A stretch of 64,000 nt of DNA from contig JAXHNB010000006.1 of assembly GCA_034520945.1 (NCBI GenBank), forward strand, positions 320,001 through 384,000. The letters run 5' to 3'. Below, in pieces: positions 2,809 through 33,934 of the stretch. The notes beneath the pieces are model-generated. The model was not told the origin of the DNA and searched no databases. It saw nothing but the letters and a program-made list of their open reading frames with translations. Made by a program: the position numbers and the translations under genes. The stretch's first letter is position 1. Every line of letters begins with the position of its first letter. Origin of the DNA: Trueperaceae bacterium (GTDB lineage: Bacteria > Deinococcota > Deinococci > Deinococcales > Trueperaceae).

Positions 2809-2984
2809 GGCCTCACGCAGGGGCGCCGTATGGACGATTGCCACACCTGTGGTCGGCCAGGCATCCGGGTCGAGCGAGCCGGAGGCGATCGCCTTGGCGA
2901 CGCCGCGTGCGTAGGTGGCCTTCTGGCGGCTGAAGCCGATCGCCCGTGCTATTTTGGTTCGACTGCCTACGCCGGAGGTTCCCC

Positions 2985-5900
2985 ATGCCGATGCTGCACC
3001 GTACACGGTTGTTCGTCGATCGTACGAAGGGGGGCGGCCGGGTGCCGGGACGCCCAAGGCTCGGGCCCCTCCTGGCGCGCCTCTTGGTGCTGGCGTTGGC
3101 GTTCTCGTCGCTCACCGCCTGGGCACAGGACGCGCCGATCCCCGAACGCTTCGCCACCACCCGCAGCGATACCGACTACCCCGGTGGCGACCTGACGCCG
3201 CTGTTCGACATTCGCCTGGAGCAGTGCCACGCCACCTGCTTGCGGCTCGAGGACTGCGCCGGCTTCACCTTCGATGGGCGCAACGCCGCCTGCTTCCCCA
3301 AGGGCAGCCTGGGCGCGCCGGTCCCGTTCGAGGGCGCGCTGTCCGGTGTGATCACGCGGCAGAGCGCGGCGGCGCTGGAGCGTGCGCGCGCGGCCGCCGC
3401 CACGATGGACTTCCTGGAGTCGTCCGACCTGGACGCCGCACGTCAGCAGGCGACGGCGATGGCCGAGCGATACCAGGCTGGCGGCAGGACGGAAGCCGAG
3501 CTGTTGGACATGGCGCGCGGGCAGCCCCCGGCCCAGGCCGTCGCGTCGACCGGCGCGGCCGTGACCGTCGCCGACGGGGGTGAGGCCTGGCTGGCGCACG
3601 CGCGGGCCCTGGCCGCCGAGGCCGCGCGCGACGCGAACCGCCGCTACGAGGCGAACCAGCAGGCCGCCTCGGCGGCGCTCAACGCAGCCCTGCGCCTTCC
3701 GGAGCCGGAGCGCGCCGCGGCGCTGGTGGTCCAGGCGCGCGCGCTCGAAGCGACCTACCGCGGCGAGACCGCGCTCGGCGCCCTGCGTCTGGCCGATCTG
3801 CTCCGTCCCGGGATCGCCCCCGCGGACATGGCGCGCTTGCGCGAGCGGTTCGGCTTTCGCGTGCTGGCCCACGACGTCGACGCCGCAACGGCGACGCCCC
3901 GCATCTGCGTGACCTTCTCGGAGGACCTCTCGCCCAGGCGCGACTACGCGCCCTTCGTGCAACACCGGGCGCGGGGACTCGCGCTCGAGGTCGAAGGGCC
4001 GCAACTGTGCGCGACGGGCGTCGCCTATGGAGAGAGCTACCTCCTGACGCTGCGCGCGGGCCTTCCCAGCGTCACGGGCGATGCGCTGATGGACGACGTG
4101 CCGCTCGAGGTCTACGTCCGCGACCGCGCGCCCTTGGTGCGCTTCCCGGGCCGAAGCTACGTGCTGCCCGCCGTCGGCCCACGAGCCCTGCCGGTAGAGA
4201 CCGTCAATGCGGACCGGCTGGCGTTGCGGCTCCTGCGCGTGTCCGACCGCAATCTGGTGAACGCCATCCGCGAGGGCGCCTTCGCGCAGGCCCTCAGCGC
4301 CTGGGAAGGCGAGCGCTTCGAGGAGCTGCTGGCGGAACCGGTGTGGCAGGGCGAAGCGCAGCTCGAAGGGACGTTGAACCAGGCCACCACCTCGCGCCTG
4401 CCGCTGGATGAGGTCGGCGCGCTGGAGCCCGGCGTGTACGTGTTGCGCGCGAGCGTGCCGGACACGGCCCCCCGTGACGTGCCGCCGGCCACCCAGTGGT
4501 TCATGGTCTCCGACCTCGGCGTCACGACGTTGTCCGGCCGCGACGGCGTGCACGTGGTGGTTCAGCGTCTGTCCGACGGCGAGCCCGTGGCGGGCGCGAC
4601 CGTGGCGCTGCTGGCGCGCTCGAACCGCCTCCTCGGCGAGGCGAGCACGGACGCCCGCGGCCACGTCCGCTTCGCGGCCGCACTGGCGCGGGGGGCGGGC
4701 GCCGCGGCGCCGGCGATGGTTCGGGTCGAGGGGCCCGACGACCTGGCGGTGCTGTCGCTCGAGGAGCCCGAGTTCGACCTGTCCGACCGCGGCGTCGAGG
4801 GGCGCGCCGCCGCGGGGCCCGTCGACCTGTTCCTGACGACCGATCGCGGCGCCTACCGTCCCGGCGAGACGATCCACGTCACGGCCCTCGCCCGCGACGC
4901 TCAGGCCCGCGCCTTGACCGGGTTGCCGATCACGGCGCGGCTGCTGCGGCCCGACGGGGTCGAGTACGCCCGCGTCGTCTCCGCGGACGAACGCGCGGGC
5001 GGGCACGTCGTGTCGCTGCCGCTCGGCGTCGACGTGCCGCGTGGCGTCTGGCGGATCGAGGCGTTCGCGGACCCGGACGGCCCGGCGTTGGCCAGCCGCA
5101 CCGTGCTGGTCGAGGACTTCGTGCCGGAACGCATCGACTTCGACCTGTCGCTGAGCGTGGACGGTCCGGTCCACGCGGATGCGCCGCCGAACCTGCGCAT
5201 CGAAGCGCGACACGCGTTCGGACCGCCCGCAGCGGGGCTGCCGCTGACGGGCAGCGTGCGCGTGAGCGCCACCCCCGAGCTCGACGGCTGGCCGGGATTC
5301 CGCTTCGGGCGCCATGATCAGCGCGTCGACGCGCAGCGCCGTACCTTCGACGGCGGGCTGCAGACCGACGCCCAGGGGCGGCTCGAGACGCCCGTGCCGC
5401 TCGGCGGCCTGACCCTCGATCCGCGGCCCTACATGCTGAGCGTGAACGCGACATTGGTCGACGGGGCCGCGCGCCCGGTCGAGCGCACCCTGACGCGTCC
5501 GCTGCGACCCCCGGGGCCGGTGGTCGGCATTCGGCCCGGCTTCGAGGGTACGTTGCCCGAGAACGCGGAGGCGACGTTCCAGCTGGTCCGGGTCGCCCCC
5601 GACGGGGCGGCGCTGGGCGGTGAGCTGCGCTGGCAGGTGGACCGCCTCCACACCCGCTACCAGTGGTTCAGCCAGGGCGGGCGCTGGAACTGGGAGCCCG
5701 TGAGCGAACGGCAGCGCGTGGCCGAGGGCGTCGCCACCGCAGCGGACGGCCCGGCCCGCATCGCGGTCCCCGTGACGTGGGGTCGCCACGAACTGCGCGT
5801 CACGTACGACGGCGAGGCGTTCGCCAGCGCCTCGGTTCCCTTCACGGCGGGCTGGTACGCCGCCGCCACGACGCGAGAGACGCCGGAGATGCTCGCGCTG

Positions 5901-8448
5901 TCGCTCGACGCGCCCGCGTACGCGCCCGGCGACGTGGCGCGGCTCCGTATCGTGCCCGAAGGGTCGGGCATGGCCCTGGTGTCGGTGCTCACCGACCGGG
6001 TGGTCGACATGCGCCTCGTGCCGGTCGAAGGGGAGACGATCGTCGAGCTGCCCGTGACCGACGACTGGGGCGTCGGCGCCTACGTCACCGCCAGCCTGAT
6101 CCGCCCCAGCGACGGCCCGGAGCACGTGCCCGCACGCAGCCTCGGGCTGGCTCACGCAGAGATTACGCCCGGTGACCGGGCGTTGCGGCCGGCGCTGAGC
6201 GCGCCCCGCGAGATGGACGCCCGCGACCGGCTCGAGGTGACGCTCTCCCTGCCGGGCCTCCAGGACGGATCCGCCTACGCCACCGTCGCGGCGGTCGACC
6301 TGGGGGCGTTGACGTTGACCGGGTTCGCGCCGCCCGATCCGATGGGTCACTTCTTCGGCCAGCGGCGCCTGGGCGTGGCGATCCACGACCTGTACGGGCG
6401 CCTGATCGACGCGCGTGAGGGGGCGCTGGGGCAGGTGCGATCCGGCGGCGGGGTCGACGCGGACGAAGCGGTGCGGCCCGGCCCGCTCCCGGCCGAGGAC
6501 GTGCTGGCGTTCTTCCGTGGCCCGGTCGAGCTGGAGAGCGGCCGCGCAGAGGTGGGGTTCGACCTGCCAGCGTTCAACGGCACCGTGCGGGTCATGGCGG
6601 TGGTGTGGACCGACCGTGCCGTCGGGCAGGCGCACGCGGACGTGCTCGTGCGCGACCCGGTGGTGATGCAACCGAGCCTGCCGCGCTTCATGACGCCGGG
6701 GGACGAGAGCCGCCTGCGGCTGGAGCTCACCCACGTCACGGGGCCGGCCGGCGACATGGCGCTGTCGGCCCAGGGCCACGGCCTGGGCGAGGTGCCGGCG
6801 AGCGTCACGCTGAGTGAAGGCGGACGCGCGGTGCTGGACCTGCCGTTGCGGCCCACGGCGGTGGGCGATCACGTCTACCGAATCGTGCTGAGCACGCCCG
6901 AGGGCCGCGAGCTGGTGCGCGAGGTGCGGATGAGCGTCCAGCACACCGACCCCGAGACCGCCCGCTCCTCGCAGCACGTGCTGGCGCCAGGGGAGAGCTT
7001 CCGCGTGGGCCCGGGCGCGCTGGCCGGCTTCAGGCCAGGGACCGCGCGGGCCACGCTGGCCGCCGGGGCGGGTGCCGCCCTGGACCTGCCGGGGCTCGTT
7101 CAGCGCTTGCTCGGCTATCCCTACGGCTGCACCGAGCAGATCGCCTCGGGCCTGCAACCGCTGCTGCTGGCCCCGGACCGGGCCGCGGAGCTCGGCGGGC
7201 TCAGCGCGGCCGAGATGCGCGAACGGGTGCAGGTCGGCGTCGAGCGGATCCTCACCCGGCAGGGGCGCACCGGCCGTTTCGGATCGTGGGGCGCGGACGG
7301 GCAGGACCTGTGGCTGGACGCCTACGTCACCGACGTGCTGCTGCGCGCCGAAGCGTACGGTGCGAGCCTCCCCGAGCACGCGCTGCCCATGGCGCTGCGC
7401 AACCTCCGCAACCAGGTGGCGCAGGCGGGATCCATGCACGACGGCGCGGCGGCCTACGCCTACGCCTTCTACGTGCTGGCGCGCGCGGGCGAGGCCGCGA
7501 TCGGCGATCTGCGTTACTACGCCGACACCCTGGCCGAACGGTTCGACACGCCGTTGGCGGCGGCGCAGCTCGGCGCCGCGTTGGCGGCCTACGGGCAGCG
7601 CTCGCGCGCGGACGCGATGTTCGCCCGGGCGTACGAGCTCGCTTTGGCGAGGTGCCGACCCGAACGATTGGCGCAACGATTACGGCACGGCGTTCCGTGA
7701 CCGGGCCGGGCTGTTGGCGTTGGCGGTCGAGGCAGGCAGCGGCGTGGTGGATCGCCGGCAGCTCGCGAGCCTGCTGACGCGGCGCGCGTCGGTGCACCAG
7801 CTCTCCACCCAGGAGGCCGCCTGGGCCTTGCGGGCGGCCGTCGCGATGGGCGCCGAGGGCCAGGGCCTCGTGGTCGACGGACGGCCCGCAGACGGAGACG
7901 TCGTGCGCCTGTTCGATGGGACGCCGGTGAGCGTCCGCAACGACGGCGACACGGACGTGACGGTGACCCTCACCGCCTTCGGCGTGCCGGAAGAGGCGCC
8001 CGAGGCCGGTGGCGTCGGCTACACGATCCGCCGGCGCCACTACACCCTCACCGGCGAAGAGGCCGACCTGGACGCCGTACGGGTGGGCGACCGTGTGGTC
8101 GTGCTCCTCGAGGTGCGCCCCGATCGGGGCGTGGCCGGCGGGCGGCTGCTGATCGACGACGCGCTGCCGGCGGGGTTCGAGATCGACAACGCCAACCTGC
8201 TGCGCGAGGGCGACGTCCGCGCGCTCGACTGGCTCGCCGTGCAAGGCGAGGCCGAAATGACCGAGGCGCGGGCGGAGCGCTTCCTGGCGGCGGTGGACTG
8301 GACCTCCGGCCTGTCGCTGCGGCTGGCGTACGTCATGCGCGCGGTGTCGCCGGGCACCTTCCACTACCCCGCGGCCAAGGTGGAGGACATGTACCGCCCC
8401 GTGAACCGCGCCATCAGCGCGACGGGCCGCGTGACCATCGGCCCGTGA
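2985..8448 (+). CDS. bacterial alpha-2-macroglobulin with N-terminal PAN/apple domain; one +1 frameshift near 7650
   Basis: SD GGAGG before ATG 2985; PAN-type Cys pattern (DYPGGDL...CHATCLRLEDCAGFTF...CFPK); TDRGAYRPGE; thioester motif YPYGCTEQ. The C-terminus (DWRNDYGTAFRDRAG...DALPAGFEIDN...VEDMYRP) continues in the frame ending at 8448. Confidence 0.9.
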
Positions 8449-10467
8449 GACGAGGGTGGCTCGCCGGGCTGGCCGGCCTGGCGGTCGTGCTGGCCCTATG
8501 GGCCGGCATCGGACGCTGGGTGGCGGTGACGGAGCTGCCGCCACTGGCGGTCGCAACCTCGACCGAGGTGCTGGCCCGCGATGGTCGGCTGTTGCGCGCG
8601 TTCACGGTCGCGGACGGCCGCTGGCGCCTGGCGCTGGCGCCGGAGGACGTGGACCCCGGCTACCTGGCGATGCTGATCGCGTACGAGGACCGGCGCTTCT
8701 ACGATCATCGCGGGGTGGACCCATGGGCGCTGGCGCGCGCCCTTCGGTCAGGCCCTCGTCCACCGGCGGCTGGTGTCGGGCGGCTCGACCCTGACCATGC
8801 AGGTCGCGCGCCTGCTCGAGGACGGCGCAACCGGCTCTTGGCCGGGCAAGCTGCGTCAGATGCGGGTGGCCCTGGCGCTCGAGCGGGCCCTGTCGAAACG
8901 AGAGATCCTGGCGCTCTACCTGCATCACGCACCCATGGGCGGCAACCTGGAGGGGGTCCGGGCGGGCAGCCTGGCGTGGTTCGGCAAGGAACCGGATCGT
9001 CTCACCGAGGCGGAGGCGGCGCTGTTGGTCGCGCTGCCGCAAGCGCCGAGCCTGCGCAGCCCCGACCGGCACCCCCGTGCGGCGCAGGCCGCGCGCGACC
9101 GCGTGCTGGCGCGGGCCCAGGCGGTGGACGTGATCGACGCGGACGCCGCCCGCACCGCCATGCGAGAGGCGCTGCCCGCGGTCCGCCGCCGCTTCCCGGC
9201 CCATGCGCCCCACCTGGCCGACCGCCTGCGGGCGGCCGAGCCGGACCGGGGGGTCCACCGCACGACGTTGGACCTGGACCTGCAGGCCGCGCTGGAGGCG
9301 CTGGCCGAGGACGCGCTGCCCGACCTGCCCGCGCGGGCGACGCTGGCATTGCAGGTCGTCGATACGGACAGCGGAACGGTCCGCGCCAGCGTGGGGTCCG
9401 CCGACTACACCAGCGACGCGCGGCAGGGGTACGTCGACATGACCCAGGCGCTGCGCTCGCCCGGCTCGACGCTGAAGCCGCTCGTCTACGGGCTCGCGTT
9501 CTCGGACGGGATGGCGCACCCGGAGACGCTCCTGAACGACCGGCCCGCCAGCTACGCCGGCTACGCGCCGCAGAACTTCGACGGCACCTTCCGTGGGCCG
9601 ATCAGTGCGCGCGAGGCCCTCCAGGCGTCGCTGAACTTGCCGGTGGTGGAGCTCACGCACGCCCTCGGACCGGCGCGGGTGATGGCGGCGCTGCGCCGGG
9701 CGGGCGTCGAAGCGGCCGTGCCGGGCGACCCGGGGTTGGCGGTCAGCCTGGGTGGCGTCGGGATCAGCCTCGAGGGACTGGTGCAGCTCTACGCCGCCAT
9801 TGCGCGCGGCGGAGAGGCGTTGCCGCTCACCGTTACCGACGCGGCGGCAGCGTCGCGGGCGCGGCTCATGACGCCCCAGGCCGCGTGGCAGGTGGGCGAC
9901 GTTCTGAGCGACGCGCCGCGCCCCGCGCGGCTGCCGGATTGGCCGCTGGCGTTCAAGACCGGCACCTCGCACGGGCATCGCGACGCGCTGGCGCTGGGCT
10001 TCGACGGGACGCACACGGTGGGGGTGTGGGTCGGTCGCGCGGACGGCACGGCCGTGCCGGGCATGTATGGGGCGGAGGTGGCGGCGCCGCTGCTGTTCGA
10101 GGTCTTCGCGCGCCTGGGAGAGACGCCCGAGCCCCTGCCGCCCGCCCCACCCGGCACCTCGGTCGCCACCAACGCCGAGCTGCCCGCCCCGCTGCGGCAG
10201 TTCGGCGCGCGGCTCGCCGGGACCGACGACACGCCGCAGTTGACGTTTCCGCCGGACGGGGCCGCCTTGGTGGACATGCCGGGTGGCATCCTGGCGCGGG
10301 TGGAGCGCGGACGGGCGCCGTTCACCTGGTTCGCCGACGGCGCGCCCGTGCTGCGCGTGAGCTTCGAACGTGAAGCGCGGCTCGCGCTGGACGGGCCCGG
10401 GTTCGTGACGCTCTCGGTGGTGGACGCCGAGGGCCGTGCCTCGCGTGTGCGGTTCGAGCTGCGGTAG
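8445..10467 (+). CDS. pbpC: penicillin-binding protein 1C; one +1 frameshift near 8741
   Basis: GTGA overlap with the alpha-2-macroglobulin stop. Transglycosylase motifs YEDRRFYDHRGVDP and SGGSTLTMQVARLL lie in two frames. Transpeptidase motifs GSTLKP, SLN and KTGT are present. Confidence 0.92.
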
Positions 10468-10526
10468 GCCGTGTTCACACGTTGCGGCGTGACACGCGGC
10501 ACGCGTCTCATCCAGAAACTCAACGA

Positions 10527-12419
10527 CTATTCCTTGTAGACCTCGAAGTTCTGGTACATGTTCAGCACCTCGCTCTTGGACAACGGGTAGTCGAAGACCA
10601 TCAGTTCGTCGATGGAACCGTCGAAAGGAAACCTTCCGCCGCACCTACCGTTACAGGGCACGATCAGTTCACTCGAGCCTACCCGCGTGAGCTGGATGGC
10701 GTCACCTGTGGGTGCATATCTGCTGTTTCCGGTATCGGAGCCTTCCTCTAGTTGACCGTTGACGTAGAGCCGCATGAGATCGATCTCGTTGTCCGCGCTC
10801 CCGTAGACGACGGCGACGTGGGTCCATTCGCCGGCAGGAATCGTGGTCTGTGACTCCACCACTTCTACGTCGTCCGAAGAGCTCGAAGGGCGGTAGAAGA
10901 ACTGCAGGTGTGCCCCGTCGCTCCTTGCCACCGCGCGGAACGCGTAGTCACCGACCGTCGTGGTCGCCCCCAGTTGACTGATGATGGTCTGTACTCCGCT
11001 CTCCGTGCGAGGTCGGATCCAGGCACTGATGCTGAACAGGCTGCCGCGCTCGATGAGTTCGGTGGTGGGCCAGGTGTTCGCGCTCTCGAACGCGCCGTCG
11101 AAACTGAAGCCTTGGTCGAAGCGACCCGCTCCGATGACTTCCTGTTCGCCCACGCCGCCCAAATCGACGTCGCCTTTGCTGTCTGCCAGCGTGCCGTCCC
11201 CCGTCCAGTAGTGCACGGGTTGTGGCAGGGTGCCCCCAATTACGGCTTCGCAGGTTTCGACGTCGTACTCGGTGGTGTTGCTGACCCTGGCCAACGCGTT
11301 GTTCCCGAGGTTGCGCAGATTGAACGAGATGGGTTCGACCTGGTTGAGTTGAATCTCTGCCTCGAAGTAAGACTCCAAGTTGCCTTCACGAATCAAGTTG
11401 GCAACGCCCGTGTTGGGGCCACCGATGGCGAGCACTTCGATGTTGGCGCCTCGCAGCGTTTCTTCTAGTTCTGCCTCTGCATATCCGTCGACGCCGCCGG
11501 CCGGCGCGTTGTAGGAGAACTCCAGCGCCGCCTCGATCCGTTCGCGGGACTCGGACGAGGTGAACGAGTACATGAGGATGCGCCCGTAAGACACGCTCGA
11601 GATGTAGAGCGGCAAATTGTCGGGACTTACACCAAAACTCCGCAAATCCTGCGCACTGGTCTCGTCGGTGAAGAACGCTGCGGGGCTCTCGGGTTGGTCC
11701 ACGCTCATGGTGAACAGCCTCTGGACGAAGTAGGCCGTGTACGTGTACTCGTTGGCTTGTCGCTGATAGTCGAGCGAAGCGCTGGCAGAGGACCCCAGGT
11801 ACCGACCTTCCAAGCCGAGCTCCAAGCTGGCTTGGGTGGCGCTGTAACTCTCGACGGACTCGAACTGGCTGAAGCCTGCCCCCACCGCAACGTCGCTTTC
11901 GACCGCGTTGGCGATGAGCTGGTTGATGCCTTCGCGCACGGTGCTGGCGACAGGCTGCTCGATGATCGTGCTGATGCCCGAGCGTACCCCCAGCACCCCA
12001 CCCCCCTCGACCGAGATGCCCAACGGCGTGCGCCTACTCTTGTCGAGCGCCAGCAGTCGAAGCGAGCCAGCCAAGTGGGAGTTGCCCTGGATGAGTGCGC
12101 CGGGCCAGATAAGACCTGCGTTGGGGTTCGTCATCACGATCTGCTCGGGGTTCTTGGTCAGGCTGTAGTGCTGTGTGCGACAGCTATAGAGTTGATTGTC
12201 CACGAGCTCTTCTTCGGGGTCGCTGGCTTCGCCCACGGGCATACCGCTGTTCTCTTCCTCGAGGGGGGCGACCTCCTCCCAGTCGGGCAAACCGCCGAGA
12301 AACGCATCGACGTCGTTTTCTCCACCACCGCCATTTCCGGTGGTTGGGCTACTGCTACACGCAACGAGGCCTATGAGTAGAGTGCCTGCGACCATAGAGC
12401 GTAACGAGACGGGGTTCAT
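10527..12419 (-). CDS. lipoprotein, thiol-activated-cytolysin (CDC-like) domain plus C-terminal LamG/ConA-like domain
   Basis: Lipobox LVAC after SD GGAGG; CDC-core-like IWPGALIQG, FVQRLFTMSVD, YISSVSYGR, IGG and PISFNLRNL; LamG-like FSISAWIRP, WTHVAVVY, LYVNGQL and FDGSIDELMVFDYPLS. Confidence 0.82.
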   Translation of the reverse strand: MNPVSLRSMVAGTLLIGLVACSSSPTTGNGGGGENDVDAFLGGLPDWEEVAPLEEENSGMPVGEASDPEEELVDNQLYSCRTQHYSLTKNPEQIVMTNPNAGLIWPGALIQGNSHLAGSLRLLALDKSRRTPLGISVEGGGVLGVRSGISTIIEQPVASTVREGINQLIANAVESDVAVGAGFSQFESVESYSATQASLELGLEGRYLGSSASASLDYQRQANEYTYTAYFVQRLFTMSVDQPESPAAFFTDETSAQDLRSFGVSPDNLPLYISSVSYGRILMYSFTSSESRERIEAALEFSYNAPAGGVDGYAEAELEETLRGANIEVLAIGGPNTGVANLIREGNLESYFEAEIQLNQVEPISFNLRNLGNNALARVSNTTEYDVETCEAVIGGTLPQPVHYWTGDGTLADSKGDVDLGGVGEQEVIGAGRFDQGFSFDGAFESANTWPTTELIERGSLFSISAWIRPRTESGVQTIISQLGATTTVGDYAFRAVARSDGAHLQFFYRPSSSSDDVEVVESQTTIPAGEWTHVAVVYGSADNEIDLMRLYVNGQLEEGSDTGNSRYAPTGDAIQLTRVGSSELIVPCNGRCGGRFPFDGSIDELMVFDYPLSKSEVLNMYQNFEVYKE

Positions 12420-12591
12420 GGTCCCTCCTTGGGCACAGTATAGGTGTACGTATGTGGGTTGTCGGTACAAAATACCCTTGTCGATCCACGAGGTGATACG
12501 ACGGCCGGACGGAATGCAATCTCCGATCGTGGCGGGTACACACGATCGCGGGCTCTTTCATGGTGTACATTTGGTACCTAGGAGGAAAAGG

Positions 12592-12861
12592 ATGGCGCTC
12601 AACATCAAGAATGAGGCGGTCGAGCGGCTCGCCAACGCCTTGGCTCGGCAACAGGGTATCAGCAAGACCGAGGCCGTGCGTCGCGCCCTCGAAGCGCAGC
12701 TGGAGCGGTCTGTCGAACCGAGCGGCGCCGATCGCGCGGCGCAGTTGGTCACGTTCCTCGAGCGCGACGTGTGGCCGTTCGTCCCGGCCGACCTGCTGGG
12801 ACGCGCGCCCGACGAGCGAGAGCGCGAGCGCATCCTCGGATACGGACCGGACGGCGTGTGA
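12592..12861 (+). CDS. vapB: type II antitoxin VapB (Rv0623-like)
   Basis: MALNIKNEAVERLANALARQQGISKTEAVRRAL...ILGYGPDGV; SD GGAGG; overlaps a PIN gene by GTGA. Confidence 0.88.
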   Translation: MALNIKNEAVERLANALARQQGISKTEAVRRALEAQLERSVEPSGADRAAQLVTFLERDVWPFVPADLLGRAPDERERERILGYGPDGV

Positions 12862-13244
12862 TCACTGACGCCAGCGCGCTCGTCGCGCTCCTGATCCGCG
12901 AACCCGGCTGGGAGCGCATCGCCGACGCCCTCACGGCCCACGCGTACGTGGCGATCGGGGCACCGACGCTGACCGAGACGGGGATCGTGCTGCACGCCAA
13001 GGGCGTTCCACCGAGCCTGTTGCCGGCCCTGATCCAACGCACGGACATCGAGATCGTGCCCTTCACGGAGCGCCACGCGACGGCGGCGATCGATGCCTAC
13101 GCGACCTACGGACGGGGTCGCCATGCCGCGTCGCTGAATTTCGGCGACTGCATGACCTACGCCGTCGCACGCTTGGCCCAGGCCCCGCTGCTGTACGTGG
13201 GGAACGACTTCGCCCAGACGGATTTGGAGCCGGTCCTAGGGTAG
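12858..13244 (+). CDS. vapC: type II toxin VapC (PIN domain)
   Basis: VITDASALVALL...E...GRGRHAASLNFGDCMTYAVA...LLYVGNDFAQTD. Confidence 0.92.
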   Translation: MITDASALVALLIREPGWERIADALTAHAYVAIGAPTLTETGIVLHAKGVPPSLLPALIQRTDIEIVPFTERHATAAIDAYATYGRGRHAASLNFGDCMTYAVARLAQAPLLYVGNDFAQTDLEPVLG

Positions 13245-13283
13245 TCGAGCGCGAGGTCGGTGGGCGCGACCGGGTTCTCGGTC

Positions 13284-14180
13284 CTACTGCGCGTTCGCGG
13301 AGGTGCGTTCGATGCGGTGGCCCGCGCCGATCAGCGCCGCGACCGCGTCGTCGAGGGCCGCGTCCTTCACCAGGAGCCAGTCGGTGTCGAAGGTGGAGAC
13401 CGCGAACACGGCGACGCCCACCGCCTCGAGGGGCCGGAGCAACGATAGCAACACCCCGGTGAGCGCGAGATCGAGGGGTCCCGACACCTGAAGGGCGCGC
13501 CACCCGGACTCGGCCCGAACCTCCTGCGGCACCACCGCGGCGCGGCACACGACCGAGGTTTCGTGCGGCGTGCGGGTGATGGACGTGAACGGTTCGCCCT
13601 CGAGCCACGGGGGTGCGGCGGTGCCGGCCGGGAGCCGGCACACGGCCAGGATCTCGGGGAGGACGTACAGCGCGAGCGCGTGGTCGTTCGTCGGCGTGCG
13701 GTGCGGAAGGTCGATCGCCATCTCGTGTTCGCGCACGTGCGTTCGTGGCGGCGGCAGCGATCCCGTCGCGCCGGTCGCGACGAAGCCGTGACGCTCGTAG
13801 AGCCGCCGTGCCGGCGCGTTGTGCGTCCCGACGTCCAGGAGCAGGCGCCGCAGGCCACGTCCCCGCGCCCACGCGAGGACGAAGCGCACGAGCGCGGCAC
13901 CGACCCCGCGTCCGCGCGCTTCGGGCGCGACCCACATCGAGATCAGGTACCCCGCGTCGGGATCCAGGTCGTGCGGTGCGCTTCGGATCATGCCGAGGTC
14001 TGCGTCGCCTTCGCGCCATACGAAGGTCGGGAGCGACGCGAGCTGTTCCTCCCAGTCCTCGGGATCGCGCGTTTCCGCCTCGTCCAGCGTGGTCGCGAAC
14101 GCGTCGGGCGCATCGGCGAGGGCACGTAGGCGGATCGCGCGGAGGCGCCGTCCCTCGCCGACACGAAGGCACACGATCAT
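13284..14180 (-). CDS. GNAT acetyltransferase fused to CASTOR/ACT_7-like ACT domain
   Basis: IRLRALADAPDAF, MWVAPEARGRGVG and ARRLYERHGF (GNAT), then SITRTPHETSVVC, GWRAL...GPLDLALTGVL and FAVSTFDTDWLLVK (ACT). Confidence 0.85.
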   Translation of the reverse strand: MIVCLRVGEGRRLRAIRLRALADAPDAFATTLDEAETRDPEDWEEQLASLPTFVWREGDADLGMIRSAPHDLDPDAGYLISMWVAPEARGRGVGAALVRFVLAWARGRGLRRLLLDVGTHNAPARRLYERHGFVATGATGSLPPPRTHVREHEMAIDLPHRTPTNDHALALYVLPEILAVCRLPAGTAAPPWLEGEPFTSITRTPHETSVVCRAAVVPQEVRAESGWRALQVSGPLDLALTGVLLSLLRPLEAVGVAVFAVSTFDTDWLLVKDAALDDAVAALIGAGHRIERTSANAQ

Positions 14181-14220
14181 GCGCCGGTCGGTTGCCTGGC
14201 CGGGCGCAGGTGGACGCCCC

Positions 14221-14766
14221 TCACGGGACTTCGCCCTGCTGCGACTCTGCACGGTCCGCGTCCGGCACGAGGTCCGCTTCGCGCGGCGTTCGCCCTTGCG
14301 CCAGCGTCTCGGCCAGCCTCCGCATCGTCCCGTCCAAGGCGTCCCGGACGCTGCGCCACGCCTCCAGGTCCTGTCCGCTCGGGTCGGGAAACGACACGTG
14401 CAGCCGCGTCGCCGCGGCCGGGTAGGCAGGGCAGCTCTCGTTGGCGTCATCGCAGACGGTGAGCACCACGTCGAAGCTCCACGGGTCCGGCACGTCCCAC
14501 AGCGTCTTGGAGGCGTGCCCGGAGATGTCGAGGCCCAGCTCGGCCATCACCGCGACCGCGTCCGGCTTGACCCGGGTCGCTTCCGTACCGGCCGACCACA
14601 CCTCGGCGTCCAGGTCGAGGCGGTCGGCGTGATGTCGAAGCCACCCTTCGCCCATCTGGCTGCGCGCGCTGTTGTGGGTGCAGAGGACGAGGAGGCGGAG
14701 CGGGCGCCCGGCCGCTCCGCACGCAGGCGTTTCCGCCTCGGCGCCGCCGCTTCCTGTCGCGCTCAC
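14221..14766 (-). CDS. arsC: arsenate reductase ArsC / LMW phosphatase family
   Basis: P-loop LCTHNSARSQMGEG; VLTVCDDANESCP; FPDP. Confidence 0.85.
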   Translation of the reverse strand: MSATGSGGAEAETPACGAAGRPLRLLVLCTHNSARSQMGEGWLRHHADRLDLDAEVWSAGTEATRVKPDAVAVMAELGLDISGHASKTLWDVPDPWSFDVVLTVCDDANESCPAYPAAATRLHVSFPDPSGQDLEAWRSVRDALDGTMRRLAETLAQGRTPREADLVPDADRAESQQGEVP

Positions 14767-27350: not shown

Positions 27351-28727
<1,377 letters not shown>

Positions 28728-28770
28728 GCGCGGACGCCGCCTTCTCCGTCCAGCAGGCGCGTAGGTCGAA

Positions 28771-29682
28771 CTAGCGCGAGCTCGTGCTGGCGCTTCGCGT
28801 TGGTCGCTTCAAGACGGCGTAGGTGGTCAGCGCGATGTCGCCTTCGACGATCCGTGCCGCGACGCGCGAATCCGTGAGCACGCCGAGCTCCGCCTCGCGG
28901 TAGGCGTAGGCGTCGCGTTCGTCGCCCCGGTAGCCCGGGTGGCACACGAGCTCGGTGACGCCCTCGGGCAACGCCCCAAGAATGCGGAGCAGGCGGCGGG
29001 TCGTGGCCCGCCGCCCGTAGAAGCTGAGTTCCAGCACGTCCGGCGAGCGAGGACGGCCGTCGGCCTCTCGCACGTGCCTGCTGGCGCGGAGACGCCGCGA
29101 CAGTACCGGCGACAGCATCATCTGCCACGCGCCGCGGTGGGCCAGCGACCGCTCCAGCCCGCCGAGGGTCGAGCGGCCGCCCGCCCGGACGGGAAGGTCG
29201 TGCGTGAGGGCCAGGTCCATCATCGCGTCGCGGCAGGCGGTGCTGAACGTGCCGACCAGCTGGTGCGAGTCGAGGTGGTCGGGCAGGCGGCCGGCGAGCG
29301 CGACGAAGCGGTCGAACTGGGCGTGGACTTCGGCACGGACCTCGTGCCGGTCCCAGTGCTGCGGCACCGCCAAACCGCGGGTGACGTCGACGAACGTGCC
29401 GTCCTCCCGCACCAGGCTCGGCACCTGACGGGGCGGCAGGACGGGGCGGCCGTAGCTCAGGTCGACGTGGAGGCCGAGCCCCAGGCGGGGCGCGACCCGG
29501 AGGGCGCGCGCGATGCCGCGCTCCGACGTCGGCGCCGTCGTGATCGCCGTGGCCGAGGTGACGATGCCTCGCGCGTGCGCCTCCAGGATCCCGCGGTCGA
29601 CCGCCTCGGACATGCCGAGATCGTCGGCGTTGACGATCAGGTGGCGGGACACGTCGCGTCGTTCGCGGTCGTCATGTGGCAC
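28771..29682 (-). CDS. ChbG/HpnK (YdjC) carbohydrate deacetylase
   Basis: LIVNADDLG, GLGLHVDL, PDHLDSHQ and ELVCHPG. Confidence 0.9.
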   Translation of the reverse strand: MPHDDRERRDVSRHLIVNADDLGMSEAVDRGILEAHARGIVTSATAITTAPTSERGIARALRVAPRLGLGLHVDLSYGRPVLPPRQVPSLVREDGTFVDVTRGLAVPQHWDRHEVRAEVHAQFDRFVALAGRLPDHLDSHQLVGTFSTACRDAMMDLALTHDLPVRAGGRSTLGGLERSLAHRGAWQMMLSPVLSRRLRASRHVREADGRPRSPDVLELSFYGRRATTRRLLRILGALPEGVTELVCHPGYRGDERDAYAYREAELGVLTDSRVAARIVEGDIALTTYAVLKRPTRSASTSSR

Positions 29683-30418
29683 GCATGCGCCGGGAGAAGT
29701 CGGGATCGTCGGCGGCGGCGTTGGCGGCGTCGCGAACGGCGTGCCGTTCTCGGAGCTGATCCTCGGGAACGTCCGTGTCGATCCAGCCCTTGCGGTAGAG
29801 GACCCGGTCGGAGCGGCCGGGCATCACGTCCGCCAGGATGAACGGCGGAAAGCTGCCAGGCCGGACCTGGTTCGCGTGCTGCCGCAAGATGCTGGTGCAG
29901 TTGTGCCGCACGCTGTGGTAGCGCCGCGGTCGCTCCAAGAGGGCGTTGGCGCTGGCCAACATGTTCAGGAACAGCGCGCGGACCTCCAGCGGCGGTGTGA
30001 CCATGGGGTAGAGGTACAGTTCGTGCCCCTGGTAGCGGGTTCGGCGCAGGAAGAAGTCCCGCTCGTCCCCGAAACTGTAGGTGAGCCCGTACCGCCCCAG
30101 CAGCCCCTGGAGGATCGAGTACCGCTGGTCCTGCCGCAGGCGCGCCTCGACCGACAGGGCCAAGAAGTCGTCACTGAACTCGAAGCTGAGGAAGGTGTGC
30201 GCGATCACCGGGATCCGTGGATGGAACGGCTCGACCAGGAACCACAAGCGCTGGAGGCGCGTCAGGTCGAACCGTCGCGTCTCCCACCGCACCTGGTACG
30301 GCTGGCCGGGGGCCGGGTAGCGCGTGGCGCGTACGTTGTCGATCGTGACGCGACTGCCGTCCAGGGTGGCGCTGGGCAGCCGCGCCACGTCCGGCTTCCA
30401 GGGGGCAGCGGGGGTCAC
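29672..30418 (-). CDS. DUF4105 domain protein
   Basis: IAHTFLSFEF, LSVEAR, GDERD and YHSVRHNCTS; start approximate. Confidence 0.8.
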   Translation of the reverse strand: MTPAAPWKPDVARLPSATLDGSRVTIDNVRATRYPAPGQPYQVRWETRRFDLTRLQRLWFLVEPFHPRIPVIAHTFLSFEFSDDFLALSVEARLRQDQRYSILQGLLGRYGLTYSFGDERDFFLRRTRYQGHELYLYPMVTPPLEVRALFLNMLASANALLERPRRYHSVRHNCTSILRQHANQVRPGSFPPFILADVMPGRSDRVLYRKGWIDTDVPEDQLRERHAVRDAANAAADDPDFSRRMRAT

Positions 30419-30462
30419 GGTACGGGGCGGGTCCGACGGACGGGGCGCAGGGACGACGTCGG

Positions 30463-31314
30463 TCAGTCCTTCGGAATGATGTTCATCTCGTCGGGGTGCA
30501 TGCCGATGCGTCCCTCCTCGCCCCGGTCGAGCCCGTCCAAGGCGCGCATGGAGGCGTCGTCCAGCTCGAAGTCGAACAGCGCGAAGTTCTCGGCCATGCG
30601 CTCGGGCGACACCGACTTGGGGAAGACCACGTCGCCGCGCTGAACGTGCCAGCGCAGCACGACCTGGGCCGGCGTGCGCCCGACCGCCCGTGCCACCTCG
30701 ACGATGGCCGCCTCGTCCAGGACGCGGGCCTTGGCGATGGGCGCCCACGCTTCGGTAAGGATGCCGTGTTCCCGGTCGTAGGCGCGCACCCGCGCGTTCT
30801 GGAAGTAGGGGTGCGCCTCGACCTGGTTCACGGCCGGGGTGGTGCCGGTCTCGGCCGCCAAGCGATCCAGGTGCTCGGGCTCGAAGTTGGACACCCCGAT
30901 CGAGCGGGCGCGGCCGCTGTCGCGGAACGCCTCCATCACCCTCCAGGTGCTGATGAAATCGCCGTCGTACAGCGTGGGCAGGGGCCAGTGGATCAGGAAC
31001 AGGTCGACGTAGTCCAGGCCGAGGCGCTCCAGCGTGGCATCGAACGAGGCGCGCGCGTCGTCGGGAAGGTGGTTGCCGTTGTTCAGCTTGCTGGTGACGA
31101 ACACGTCCTCGCGCTTCACGCCGGAGGCGCGGACGGCCTCGCCCACGCCACGTTCATTCCCGTACATCTGTGCGGTGTCGATGTGGCGGTAGCCGACGTC
31201 CAGGGCGGCACCGACGGCGCGGGCGGTGTCCTCCGGGGGGATCTGGTAGGTGCCGAAGCCGAGTTGGGGGATGGTGTGGCCGTCGTTCATCGTCAGGGAA
31301 GGCACTTGGCTCAT
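30463..31314 (-). CDS. aldo/keto reductase (2,5-DKG reductase-like)
   Basis: IPQLGFGTYQ, GYRHIDTAQMYGNE, DLFLIHWP, IGVSNF and FPKS. Confidence 0.93.
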   Translation of the reverse strand: MSQVPSLTMNDGHTIPQLGFGTYQIPPEDTARAVGAALDVGYRHIDTAQMYGNERGVGEAVRASGVKREDVFVTSKLNNGNHLPDDARASFDATLERLGLDYVDLFLIHWPLPTLYDGDFISTWRVMEAFRDSGRARSIGVSNFEPEHLDRLAAETGTTPAVNQVEAHPYFQNARVRAYDREHGILTEAWAPIAKARVLDEAAIVEVARAVGRTPAQVVLRWHVQRGDVVFPKSVSPERMAENFALFDFELDDASMRALDGLDRGEEGRIGMHPDEMNIIPKD

Positions 31315-31459
31315 GGTGCTCCATTATGCGCCGTTCAGGCGGGTCGTGGGTGTCGCGCGGTGGCCACGCGGCCCGCAGGCTGGCCTGGCAAACGATGTGC
31401 CCCTCCCCGTCGTGGTTGACCACGAGGAACGTCCTTTCCGTCAAGGGCGTGCGTTGCGC

Positions 31460-33934
31460 TCAGGTCGTCTCGTCGCGCACCATCGATCCCGCCTCGAGCG
31501 AGGGACGCAGTTCGCGCGCGGGCAACGGTCGGCTGAACAGGTAGCCTTGGCCTTCGTCGCAGCCGAGCCGCCTGAGCACCTCGAGTTGCGCCTCCCGCTC
31601 GATGCCTTCCGCGACGACGGTCAGCCCGAGCGCCTGACCCAAGCGGAGGATGGCCCTCATGATGGCGGCGCCGTCCGCGCCGGAGGTCGGCGTGGTGTTG
31701 TCGACGCCGAGGCGCGCCACGAAGGTCCGGTCCAACTTGAGCACGTCGACCGGGAGGGTCTGCAGCCAACCGAGGCTGGAATGCCCCGTCCCGAAGTCGT
31801 CCAGCGAGATGTGCACGCCCAGCGCCCGCAAGCGTGCGAGGGTGCGGGCGCTTTCGGTGACGTCGGTCATGGCGCTGGTCTCGAGGATCTCGAGCTCCAG
31901 GCGGTCGGCGGGCAGGCCGCTGGCCGCCAGCACCTCCTTCACCTCGTCCACGATGTCGGCACGCTGCAACTGATGGCGGCTGACGTTCACCGACACGTGC
32001 GGAGGTGGTGCGCCATCCGCGCTGGGCCAGCCCGCGGCCTCGGCACACGCCAGTTCCAGGACTCGCCGGCCGAGCGGATGGATCAGGTTGGTCGCCTCGG
32101 CCAACGACACGAACCGGGCGGGTTCGATCAGGCCCCACTCCGGGTGCTTCCAGCGCACCAGCGCCTCCGCCGCGACGATGCGGCCGGTGCCGAGCGAGAC
32201 CCGCGGCTGGTAGTGCACCTCGAACTCGTCTTTGTGAAGCGCGTCGCGCAGGGCGCCTTCCAGCATCATGCGCTGTTGCGCGCCGGCCTCCATCTCGTCG
32301 GCGAAGAAGCGGTACGTGCCCTTACCGGCCTTCTTCGCGTGGTACATGGCGATGTCGGCGTGCCGCAGCAGGTCTCCGAGGGTGTGCCCGTCGTGCGGGC
32401 ACAGGCTGATGCCGATGCTGGCACCGACGCGAACGTCGTACGACTCCACGTCGATCGGCTTTTGCAGCGCGTCGATGATCCGTTGGGCCGTCGCGACCGC
32501 GTCGTCGCCGACGCCCGGACCGGAGAGGAGCACCGTGAACTCGTCCCCTCCGAGTCGCGCAACGAAGCCGTCGTCGTGCTTGACGCTTCGTTGGATACGC
32601 CGGGCCACCTCGCGCAGCACCGTGTCGCCCGCGGGATGCCCCAGCGAATCGTTGATCGGCTTCAGGTTGTCCAGATCGACGAACAACACCGCGTGCGCGG
32701 GGTAGGTGCGGCCCGCGTCCAAGCGCTGCTGGAGCTGGTCCTTGAAGGCGGCACGGTTGGGGAGGCCGGTGAGGGGATCCTCGTACGCCTGGACGTACAG
32801 CGAGCGTTCCAGATCGAAGCGCCGCATCAGCGACGCGACCTGCCCACCGAAGATGCGGGCCATCTCGAGCTCGTCCTCGCCGAACGCGTCGGGATCCTCG
32901 TAGTTGTCGAGCGTCAGGTAGGCGGTCATCTCGTCCCCCACCAAGATCGGGACGTTCAGCACGGCCCTGAGCTCCTCGAAGCGGCCTTCGTCGGCGAGGG
33001 CGGCGGCGTCCGGGGGATCGAGGGCCTCGTGGAGTCGTGGGTGACGCACCACGAACGGACGCCCGTCCTGGCTGGACTGTCCGAACGAGACCGCTTCGGG
33101 TGGGATCCGCACGGTCCGGAGCCGCTCCAGGTCGAAGCCGACCACCGCGGAGAACCGGAATGCGCCGTCGTGGGCGCGCTTGAGGATGGCGGCGGTGGAC
33201 GCGCCGGGGATGACCCGGACGGCCTCCTCCAGCAGGCGCTGGTCGAACGAACCTGGGTCGCTCTCGTCCAGCCCCAGCTCCACCAGGCTCATCACACTGC
33301 GGCGGAACTCCGCCATCGTCCGGGCGTAGCGTTCGCTCTGACGGAGCACGGCGGTCTCATTGTCGTGGCCCAGCGCCAACTCGGCCAGGCTGGCCGCGGC
33401 GCGCACGACCTCGAGCTCCTCACCAGTGGGCGCGCGGGGTGCATCGTGGTGTACTGCCAAAACGCCTTCGATGCCCCCGCCCGGAAGGCGCAACGGCAGC
33501 AACCAGCAGGCCTGGATGCCCGCGGCGACCGCCACGCTGCTGAAGGCGCCGTCGCCCGATCGGTCGGCGACGTCGTCGACCACCACGAGGTCGTCCTGGC
33601 GGACCGCCTCGGCGTAGGCGCATGTGTCCTCGGCCACGGCCAAGCCGTTCACGGCGTGGACGTAGCTTTCCGGCAAACGGGGTGCAGCCTCCACGTTCAG
33701 GGTCCCGGCGGAGGGATCGAGGCGCAGGACGGCGCAGCGCGCGCCCGGCAACTGCGTGTCCACCATGGTGCAGATCATGGTCAGGCGCGCATCGGACCCG
33801 GCATCGTGCGGCGCGTGCGCGCGTGGTGCGTCCGAACGGCTCGGCGGGGACGATGGTGCGCCGGACGCGCCGGCGGGCCCCCGCCGCGCCGCGTCCGTGT
33901 CCACCGTTGGCCGAGATTCCGATCCGTCGCTCAC
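31460..33934 (-). CDS. GAF-GAF-GGDEF-EAL c-di-GMP enzyme
   Basis: DPLTGLPNR, RLGGDEF, AEALVRW and LDDFGTGHSSL; two GAF-like N-terminal regions. Confidence 0.92.
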   Translation of the reverse strand: MSDGSESRPTVDTDAARRGPAGASGAPSSPPSRSDAPRAHAPHDAGSDARLTMICTMVDTQLPGARCAVLRLDPSAGTLNVEAAPRLPESYVHAVNGLAVAEDTCAYAEAVRQDDLVVVDDVADRSGDGAFSSVAVAAGIQACWLLPLRLPGGGIEGVLAVHHDAPRAPTGEELEVVRAAASLAELALGHDNETAVLRQSERYARTMAEFRRSVMSLVELGLDESDPGSFDQRLLEEAVRVIPGASTAAILKRAHDGAFRFSAVVGFDLERLRTVRIPPEAVSFGQSSQDGRPFVVRHPRLHEALDPPDAAALADEGRFEELRAVLNVPILVGDEMTAYLTLDNYEDPDAFGEDELEMARIFGGQVASLMRRFDLERSLYVQAYEDPLTGLPNRAAFKDQLQQRLDAGRTYPAHAVLFVDLDNLKPINDSLGHPAGDTVLREVARRIQRSVKHDDGFVARLGGDEFTVLLSGPGVGDDAVATAQRIIDALQKPIDVESYDVRVGASIGISLCPHDGHTLGDLLRHADIAMYHAKKAGKGTYRFFADEMEAGAQQRMMLEGALRDALHKDEFEVHYQPRVSLGTGRIVAAEALVRWKHPEWGLIEPARFVSLAEATNLIHPLGRRVLELACAEAAGWPSADGAPPPHVSVNVSRHQLQRADIVDEVKEVLAASGLPADRLELEILETSAMTDVTESARTLARLRALGVHISLDDFGTGHSSLGWLQTLPVDVLKLDRTFVARLGVDNTTPTSGADGAAIMRAILRLGQALGLTVVAEGIEREAQLEVLRRLGCDEGQGYLFSRPLPARELRPSLEAGSMVRDETT

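Follow-up and report, generated by a model that had tools for sequence, protein, structure and literature searches.

A cholesterol-dependent cytolysin-like lipoprotein with a LamG domain in place of domain 4 in a Trueperaceae bacterium

Cholesterol-dependent cytolysins (CDCs) serve as the model for giant beta-barrel pores. The classical members, whose hosts are Gram-positive pathogens, have a plain secretion signal, a pore-forming core (domains 1 to 3) and a domain 4 with the undecapeptide and the Thr-Leu pair that recognizes cholesterol (PMC7527733). A related group, the CDC-like proteins (CDCLs), was defined by Evans et al. by an F/Y-F/Y-Xn-YGR motif and a Gly-Gly pair, both of which act in the switch from prepore to pore, and its binding domains are highly diverse (PMC7527733). 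The CDCLs of Bacteroidota and Elizabethkingia (PMC11169675, PMC11952106; structures 6xd4, 8g32 and 8g33) work with a short partner and are activated by cleavage after T-K or T-R (PMC11169675). For the relatives that do not use cholesterol, the questions are what the ligand is, whether a partner is needed and how the membrane of the producer is spared. Here we describe a gene of this superfamily in a stretch of 64,000 nucleotides from a Trueperaceae bacterium (GenBank assembly GCA_034520945.1, contig JAXHNB010000006.1, positions 320,001 to 384,000), referred to below as the window. The product of the gene is referred to as P0002.

P0002 combines a near-classical CDC core with a lipoprotein signal and a LamG domain. 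The sequence comparisons and the structural model described below suggest that it is probably a self-sufficient, lipid-anchored pore-former of the CDC/CDCL superfamily that is not targeted to sterol, and that it is encoded by a recently acquired single-gene locus whose neighbours are bystanders. It is not a new kind of system, as both the diversity of binding domains and the occurrence of single genes are known for CDCLs (PMC7527733, PMC11169675). It is of interest mainly because a single gene here provides a clean model for targeting without sterol and for domain swaps that occur in nature.

The pore-forming core and the N-terminus

The first-pass annotation of the window, made from the sequence alone, had placed the gene at 10527-12419, and this is exact. 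The probable start is the ATG at 12419, with AAGGAGG eight bases upstream, the stop codon occupies 10527-10529 and the enclosing open reading frame (ORF) spans 10527..12470 on the minus strand (features are listed in Table 1). The lipobox that had been read at the N-terminus, LIGLVAC, is also there, with its cysteine at position 21. When P0002 and 52 relatives were aligned (alignment A1), the strict lipobox pattern was found in 38 of the 53 sequences; of the other 15, 14 have a cysteine directly after the hydrophobic stretch (by eye) and one is truncated at the N-terminus. The host genome encodes both signal peptidase II (LspA, 1.6e-35) and Lgt (2e-50).

The middle of the protein is a CDC core. 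The Thiol_cytolysin model (PF01289) matches residues 80-391 with an E-value (E) of 6.3e-34 (117.8 bits against a cut-off of 25; Pfam). Among proteins of solved structure the best sequence match is suilysin (E 5.3e-27), followed by intermedilysin (ILY), vaginolysin, pneumolysin (PLY) and perfringolysin O (PFO; about 3e-15), and the Elizabethkingia CDCLs reach only 3e-4 to 1e-3. An AlphaFold2 model built from A1 had a mean predicted local distance difference test score (pLDDT) of 80.2 and a predicted template modelling score (pTM) of 0.60. The pLDDT was below 50 at residues 1-33 and in a few loops, notably 205-217 in the first hairpin region. When the model was compared with the Protein Data Bank using Foldseek, the top matches were classical CDC monomers (1s3r, 5imy, 5aoe, 1pfo, 4cdb and 3hvn; E 1.3e-23 to 1.2e-22; target TM-scores 0.57-0.62), and the leading CDC matches include ILY, PLY, PFO and listeriolysin O (LLO; E 1.3e-23 to 1e-21). 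The CDCL entries 8g33, 8g32 and 6xd4 rank lower (7e-15 to 5e-14). Both by sequence (E 5e-27 to 1e-15) and by structure (about 1e-23) the best matches of P0002 are classical CDCs, and it is far closer to them than the solved Bacteroidota CDCLs are.

The hallmarks of pore formation are conserved. The YGR motif and the Gly-Gly pair are invariant in all 53 members of A1, as are W47, C80, L235 and C390. The aromatic pair of the CDCL definition falls at L235-F236 (by eye, from the suilysin alignment), and the first of these two positions is aromatic in just 62% of CDCLs (PMC7527733). In both putative transmembrane hairpins the alignment columns alternate between hydrophobic and polar across the whole family (197-218 and 295-318). 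The first-pass annotation had proposed a CDC core with YGR and GG motifs and had set its case on a predicted fold with hairpin helices; the model contains both the core and the helices, with hairpin 1 partly at low confidence. A two-copy complex prediction of the core (35-395) from its own alignment gave a score of 0.00 against a mark of 0.42, which speaks neither for nor against oligomerization. The invariant cysteines lie at window positions 12180-12182 (C80) and 11250-11252 (C390), and the same pair is seen by eye in several CDCLs of the published alignment. A disulfide between them may tie the first strand of the core to its end.

P0002 shares with the classical CDCs the fold of domains 1 to 3, the order of its elements, the YGR and GG motifs and a pair of helical bundles, which in the CDCs turn into beta-hairpins. 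It differs from them in having the LamG domain instead of domain 4, the undecapeptide and the Thr-Leu cholesterol motif, in its lipoprotein signal, in the two invariant cysteines of its family and in the hosts of that family, which are environmental Deinococcota, Chloroflexota and others. It fits the definition of the CDCLs, with the YGR motif, the GG pair, a non-CDC domain 4 and the signal peptidase II (SPII) type of signal that is often found among them (PMC7527733). In the alignment of that study (Fig. S2) its core most resembles, by eye, the CDCLs of Basidiobolus, Deinococcus deserti and Streptomyces, including the cysteine pair and an LPxW motif. By its sequence, P0002 is a CDCL in the sense of Evans et al. 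and not a classical CDC.

It also appears to stand alone. There is one PF01289 match in the whole genome, which is 97.4% complete, so the first-pass annotation was right that there is no second CDC-like gene; the search was for PF01289 only, and a partner or immunity protein of another family elsewhere in the genome was not searched for. No short partner of the PF01289 type was therefore found such as accompanies the Bacteroidota and Elizabethkingia CDCLs, and none stands beside the homologues at six other loci. No neighbour is conserved across these loci, and no adjacent immunity lipoprotein was seen such as the Bacteroidota CDCLs have, although no search directed at BcdI was made. A solo gene had been taken to be unusual, but among the Bacteroidota genomes that bear CDCLs 821 of 1578 carry a single gene (PMC11169675).

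The N-terminal region had been described as flexible and acidic. It is acidic, with 15 Asp or Glu and no Lys or Arg in residues 22-79, but it is only partly flexible, as a pLDDT below 50 is confined there to residues 1-33. Residues 35-90 are confidently modelled (means of 72-93 pLDDT in blocks of ten residues) and residues 36-52 hold a conserved motif with the consensus DAFVxxLPxWxxVSP, in which W47 is the invariant tryptophan. In Fig. S2 of PMC7527733 its counterparts, by eye, are the 'LPDW' of the Basidiobolus CDCL and, in PFO, the region of the N-terminal helix. Between W47 and C80, P0002 has 11 acidic and no basic residues (family means 7.9 and 0.8), and 33 of the 53 family members have no Lys or Arg there. 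The cleavage site of the Elizabethkingia protein, TK66, falls within the corresponding segment (again by eye, Fig. S2). Because this stretch is acidic and so often without a basic residue, a trypsin-like activation site does not appear to be conserved in the family, unlike in the two-component CDCLs, and the activation by protease that had been proposed from the characterized toxins finds no support here. P0002 as a whole is strongly acidic (87 Asp or Glu against 35 Lys or Arg), which fits a salt-adapted secreted protein, and salt adaptation may account for the acidic N-terminus without any special role.

The C-terminal module and its exchange

LamG-like sequence sets in at about residue 397, directly behind the core and its invariant C390. 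The published alignment (Fig. S2, PMC7527733) marks PFO domain 4 as starting here, so the earlier statement that LamG replaces domain 4 is correct in topology. Pfam finds Laminin_G_3 (PF13385) over residues 450-618 with a score of 80.7 bits (cut-off 27.6; E 1.6e-22), which together with the Thiol_cytolysin match gives the two domains that the first-pass annotation had expected from a search with these models. The tail is rich in strands, with block means of pLDDT of 85-98 over residues 431-560 and 69-97 over 396-630. Further down the Foldseek list for the model are ConA-like domains that match only the tail: domain 4 of AbnA (5hon, target TM-score 0.70), the lectin domains of trans-sialidases, a pentraxin and the binding domains of neurotoxins. 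AbnA is an arabinanase and its 5hon domain binds carbohydrate; the sequence link between the tail and 5hon is weak (E 0.043). With NCBIfam, P0002 gave just a sub-threshold match of the LamG part to TafC (26 bits against a cut-off of 410).

The undecapeptide, ECTGLAWEWWR, is absent, as had been noted. The best match in P0002 is 4 of 11 positions, and in 500 shuffled sequences the maximum was 4 of 11 in 284 and higher in 29, so the match is at chance level. Across all 53 family members the best match is 3 or 4 of 11. The Pfam model of CDC domain 4 has no match in P0002 up to E = 1.

The architecture is not confined to this host. A word-indexed search in which 8000 candidates were scored gave 113 related clusters (90% identity) at E up to 1e-3, our own included, and in 93 of them precomputed Pfam annotation places both PF01289 and PF13385. 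The closest are P0003 (87% identity overall and 95% in the core), P0004 (65%) and P0005 (68%). The few clusters with named sources come from Trueperaceae, Promineifilaceae, Anaerolineaceae, Actinomycetota, Bryobacterales, Alphaproteobacteria and Sandaracinaceae, and so span Trueperaceae, Chloroflexota, Actinomycetota, Acidobacteriota, Alphaproteobacteria and Myxococcota. All named sources are metagenome-assembled, and the fullest annotation among them is 'thiol-activated cytolysin family protein'. The claim that Trueperaceae is an unexpected host therefore does not hold, and P0002 matches were also found in 10 of 36 genomes of the host family (see below).

A HMMER search of 1.84 billion representative sequences with the core alone (residues 35-395) found 2312 relatives at E up to 1e-3, of which 307 reach 1e-30 or better. 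They range from 284 to 1122 residues in length and the position of the core within them varies. From 150 listed representatives we scanned 70 with Pfam, leaving out the nine best matches, three short fragments and P0188-P0255. PF01289 was found in all 70 and other modules of adhesion or lectin type in 24: a C-terminal FG-GAP in 13, Laminin_G_3 in two, Laminin_B in one, SLH with PKD or cadherin-like domains in two, an N-terminal fn3 in two, an N-terminal Big_2 in two, Tectonin in one and PD40 in one. The other 46 had no further domain at E up to 1e-5. Among the further architectures on the same core are an N-terminal Tectonin, and SLH with PKD or cadherin-like domains (P0185, P0119 and P0131), and P0114 has a sub-threshold N-terminal region resembling a fungal fucose lectin.

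We built a maximum likelihood tree of 64 rows from the core columns only (IQ-TREE quick search, LG+G4), with branch support from the approximate likelihood ratio test of Shimodaira-Hasegawa type (SH-aLRT). The LamG-bearing sequences belong to a clade of 57 rows (support 100). Within it, P0064, which has a Laminin_B tail, is sister to the LamG-tailed P0006 (97), inside an eight-row clade that also contains P0002 (99). P0100, with an FG-GAP tail, is nested with P0088, P0089 and P0094 (98) among LamG rows. Since rows with Laminin_B and FG-GAP tails fall inside groups of LamG-tailed rows on the core tree, the C-terminal module is, as judged from trees and domain scans, an exchangeable targeting cassette, with LamG, Laminin_B, FG-GAP or unassigned tails placed on the same core. 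The identities fit this. The median identity to P0002 is 63% in the core and 42% in the tail, and the mean pairwise identity in the family is 66% and 46%, respectively. In P0006, P0009 and P0066 the cores are 69-82% identical to P0002 and the tails 28-32%, below the tail identity of relatives with more distant cores. Such a contrast would be expected if the receptor-binding cassette is swapped between proteins or changes rapidly. P0080, in which no tail domain is recognizable, also falls among LamG rows, next to P0027 on a very short branch (0.007): its core is nearly identical to that of P0027 and its tail of 250 residues has no LamG match. Its tail could have been replaced recently, or the gene call could contain a frameshift.

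Other toxins of the superfamily join a CDC engine to a carbohydrate-binding or adhesion module that modulates targeting. In lectinolysin and discoidinolysin of Streptococcus mitis (PMC3500998, PMC9351568) this extra lectin or discoidin domain is N-terminal and the cholesterol-binding domain 4 is kept, whereas in P0002 the lectin-like domain takes the place of domain 4. As chimeras of a long CDCL subunit (CDCL-L) with PFO domain 4 demonstrate, targeting in this superfamily can be transferred with the C-terminal domain, and such engineered swaps are reported to retarget a CDCL (PMC11952106). The chimeras were engineered and tested on liposomes; the LamG, Laminin_B and FG-GAP swaps look like their natural counterpart. 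A LamG-type tail is absent from all 17 sequences shown in Fig. S2 of PMC7527733, although the set in Fig. S4 of that paper may include such members, and in the open-access literature we found no paper on a CDC or CDCL with a LamG or Laminin_G_3 tail.

Distribution and acquisition of the gene

The host genome has 3.47 Mb in 10 contigs, with 5.1% contamination. The gene is poorer in GC than the DNA to its left. Its GC content is 0.608 (0.77 at third codon positions, GC3), compared with 0.753 (GC3 0.93) for the adjacent pbpC and an average of 0.748 for the 6 kb to its left, so that it lies 14 points under its left flank. The richness in A and T that had been visible to the first-pass annotation is thus borne out. 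At the loci in six other hosts the homologue is within about 5 points of its flanks.

The gene is patchy among relatives. Matches to P0002 were found in 17 of 61 related genomes (the host, G000, included), with 10 matching genomes among the 36 of the family and 2 among the 10 of the genus. Full-length copies of the LamG type are present in G004 (56% identity), G018 (54%), G019 (45%) and G033 (44%), and G031 holds the Laminin_B form. The congener G005 has a relic only, consisting of the last 60 codons and 34 bases downstream: 215 bases that are 88% identical to window 10493-10707. It is located at G005:C13:1504279-1504493 (9880-10094 of the extracted locus L022), where pbpC is not nearby and the adjoining genes encode a TetR regulator and an alcohol dehydrogenase of the zinc-dependent type. 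To the left of the P0002 gene, synteny with G005, G004 and G008 ends at window 10459-10467 (query 4460-4468), which is the pbpC stop. Because the composition is foreign and synteny with the congeners breaks off at this point, the horizontal acquisition proposed earlier is likely and, on these sequence comparisons, the P0002 gene is likely to be an accessory gene of recent arrival, with gains and losses among the congeners. The donor could plausibly be a relative with less GC.

Nothing marks the borders of an island. There is no tRNA gene in window 1-30000 and no mobility gene at the borders, the repeats around the gene are short, imperfect and of chance quality only, and there is no Rfam match within window 9000-14500. 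When the sequence that follows pbpC in G008 and G005 was compared with the window by tblastx, the high GC content made the matches too noisy to define an insertion site. Relatives of the core do occur on plasmids: 50 records, among them Deinococcus and Microvirga plasmids, hold relatives at 22-33% identity. No copy of the LamG type is among these 50, as none covers at least 80% of the query.

Table 1. Features of the P0002 gene and its neighbours, in window coordinates
Feature	Position	Strand	Basis or remark
CDC-like lipoprotein coding sequence (P0002, 630 aa)	10530..12419	-	ORF, ribosome-binding site, translation, end-to-end alignment with 52 relatives
Signal peptide and lipobox, residues 1-21 (LIGLVAC, Cys21)	12357..12419	-	Sequence
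Ser/Thr/Gly-rich tether, residues 22-34, predicted disordered	12318..12356	-	pLDDT <50 for residues 1-33
CDC domains 1-3 core, residues 35-395, including DAFxxLPxW motif, W47, Cys80 and Cys390	11235..12317	-	PF01289, suilysin match, Foldseek
Putative transmembrane hairpin 1, residues 191-224	11748..11849	-	Helix 194-200, then low-confidence 205-217; alternation 197-218
YGR motif, Y278 G279 R280	11580..11588	-	Invariant, 53/53
Putative transmembrane hairpin 2, residues 289-325	11445..11555	-	Helices 292-303 and 315-324; alternation 295-318
Gly-Gly pair, G333 G334, start of alpha-beta loop	11418..11423	-	Invariant, 53/53
LamG/ConA-like domain, residues 396-630, in CDC domain-4 position	10530..11234	-	PF13385, pLDDT, Foldseek
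Promoter-like site CCGACA-17-TATACT, 18 bases 5' of ATG	12437..12465	-	Weak: 1 found against 0.5 expected
Bacterial alpha-2-macroglobulin (A2M)	2946-8448	+	Pfam; two reading frames; neighbour, not linked
Penicillin-binding protein 1C (PBP1C; pbpC)	8445-10467	+	Pfam; two reading frames; neighbour, not linked
vapB	12592-12861	+	PF07704, E 1e-17; neighbour, not linked
PIN-domain vapC	about 12858-13244	+	PIN, E 3e-16; neighbour, not linked

Proposed action and alternatives

If P0002 works as its relatives do, the precursor would be exported, lipidated at Cys21 and either shown on the outer surface or shed from it, possibly in vesicles; Elizabethkingia CDCLs with the same type of signal were found in spent medium (PMC7527733). 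The LamG domain would bind a non-sterol receptor on the target cell, for which a surface glycan is the likeliest candidate. Monomers would then oligomerize through the sheet edges of domain 3, and the helical bundles (about 191-224 and 289-325) would open out as amphipathic beta-hairpins and together build a large beta-barrel pore. Control of the switch from prepore to pore would lie with the YGR/GG sensor, as it does in PFO, and the protein would act without a second CDC-type subunit.

The N-terminus of a CDC sits at the upper end of domain 1, remote from the tip that binds the membrane. Should P0002 share this geometry, its N-terminal lipid anchor would turn both the tip and the insertion face away from the membrane of the producer. 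Such an orientation, if true, could protect the producer and present the toxin to its neighbours. We put forward, tentatively and as a possibility rather than an expectation, that the family is a natural single-component branch of the CDCs, in which a classical-type engine has its lectin or adhesion cassettes swapped at one junction and an anchor holds the toxin 'head-down' on the producer. If so, self-protection would be topological and would suit killing, by contact or by vesicles, of neighbouring microbes or grazers, and the family would link the CDCs to the complement-like CDCLs and would be a natural source of giant pores that can be retargeted. The family is tractable, as it has a near-classical core, a single gene and a defined lectin-like domain in the receptor position, and its natural swaps on near-identical cores could reveal how targeting evolves. 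Toxins of this kind are common accessory genes in environmental Deinococcota, Chloroflexota and Actinomycetota, where a role in bacterial antagonism or in defence against grazers is conceivable.

Several points weigh against a self-sufficient, non-sterol-targeted pore-former. Pore formation is deduced entirely from homology across the family, and confidence in the model of the first transmembrane hairpin is low (residues 205-217 have a pLDDT below 50). The ligands of the broad PF13385 superfamily include proteins, and the sole link to carbohydrate binding at the level of sequence is the weak match to 5hon. The full-length Elizabethkingia CDCL has its own binding domain and is not lytic alone (PMC7527733), so self-sufficiency does not follow from the gene being alone. 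Elsewhere in the genome there may be a gene for a partner or immunity protein outside PF01289, and activation by a protease that cuts at non-basic residues is possible. Finally, this is a draft genome with about 5% contamination, and the low GC of the gene could mark a mis-binned segment; set against this, the gene lies inside a 987-kb contig with high-GC DNA on both sides.

P0002 might instead be one half of a two-component CDCL, that is, a receptor-binding 'long' subunit that is cut by a surface protease and recruits a short pore subunit while an immunity lipoprotein guards the producer. It shares with the CDCLs the SPII-type signal, the YGR and GG motifs and the non-CDC domain 4, the Elizabethkingia CDCL-L is inactive alone (PMC7527733), and CDC-family genes are clustered in two genomes of the host family (three on one contig in G025 and two within 19 kb in G034). 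We nevertheless consider this unlikely, given the single PF01289 match in the genome, the lack of a conserved neighbour at six other loci, the acidic segment that aligns by eye with TK66 and a core that is nearer to the self-sufficient classical CDCs than to the CDCLs (sequence, 5e-27 versus 3e-4; fold, 1e-23 versus 1e-14). The clusters themselves, at G025:C48 (1980-14632) and G034:C2 (130699-150273), consist of distant members with 26-32% identity and possibly represent multi-component CDCL systems within Trueperaceae. A non-lytic surface adhesin or lectin, with the CDC fold serving as its scaffold, would account for the lipid anchor and the lectin-like domain, for the absence of an evident immunity gene at the compared loci and for the fact that lytic activity is assigned to the family by analogy only. 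It would leave two things hard to explain: the residues that have no role but in the prepore-to-pore switch are invariant in all 53 sequences, and both hairpin regions stay amphipathic across about 45-95% sequence divergence. Because of this conservation membrane insertion is favoured, and a purely adhesive role seems distinctly improbable to us.

A self-sufficient pore-former must also be set against a recently arrived passenger gene, silent or decaying and without function in this host. The strongly foreign composition, the patchy occurrence in the genus and the relic in G005 are what such a gene would show, and the promoter evidence is weak because one promoter-like site was found where 0.5 would be expected. 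Nevertheless, the frame of 630 codons is intact, the ribosome-binding site is good and every residue that is invariant in the family is present, and the identity to P0003, the closest relative (87% overall, 95% in the core), points to purifying selection. There is, in our view, only a slim chance that P0002 is such a passenger. Still less probable, to the point that we would be surprised by it, is the coupling to neighbouring genes that the first-pass annotation had suggested, with A2M trapping proteases to limit self-activation and vapBC stabilizing an island. The named neighbours are indeed there, and vapBC, with a GC content of 0.69, is somewhat below the left flank; beyond this the case for coupling is physical adjacency, and the comparison between genomes already speaks against it. 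As a brake on activation, the A2M gene is a poor candidate: the A2M-pbpC pair is conserved (75-80% DNA identity) in G005, G004 and G008, none of which has an intact P0002-like gene beside it (there is no P0002 match in G008, the copy in G004 is on another contig and G005 has the relic), and here the frames of both A2M and pbpC are broken. The vapBC genes are divergent from the P0002 gene across a 172-base spacer, and there is no tRNA gene, flanking repeat or mobility gene to bound an island that they could stabilize.

To look for shared neighbours we compared the ORFs of the window and eight loci all against all using BLASTP. Two of these loci, L002 and L023, are apparently the same contig, so the set corresponds to six distinct homologue loci and the relic locus. 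Only the gene itself, its antisense shadows and the relic in G005 were shared, and A2M, pbpC and vapBC recur beside a homologue at none of the six other loci. We therefore treat A2M-pbpC and vapBC as bystanders. A2M and PBP1C form a well-known conserved pair in Gram-negative bacteria. In the congeners, vapBC-like DNA is found on other contigs. The vapC gene has no match in NCBIfam.

The frame break in A2M lies at about 7443-7700 and that in pbpC at about 8677-8775. The copies in G008 are single-frame and those in G005 are broken too. Because the assemblies of G000 and G005 both consist of 10 contigs, indel errors are as likely an explanation as pseudogenes. In G005 the A2M-pbpC segment matches twice on one contig, at G005:C12:19856-24383 and 27464-31994, 7.6 kb apart, which is either a tandem duplication or an assembly artefact.

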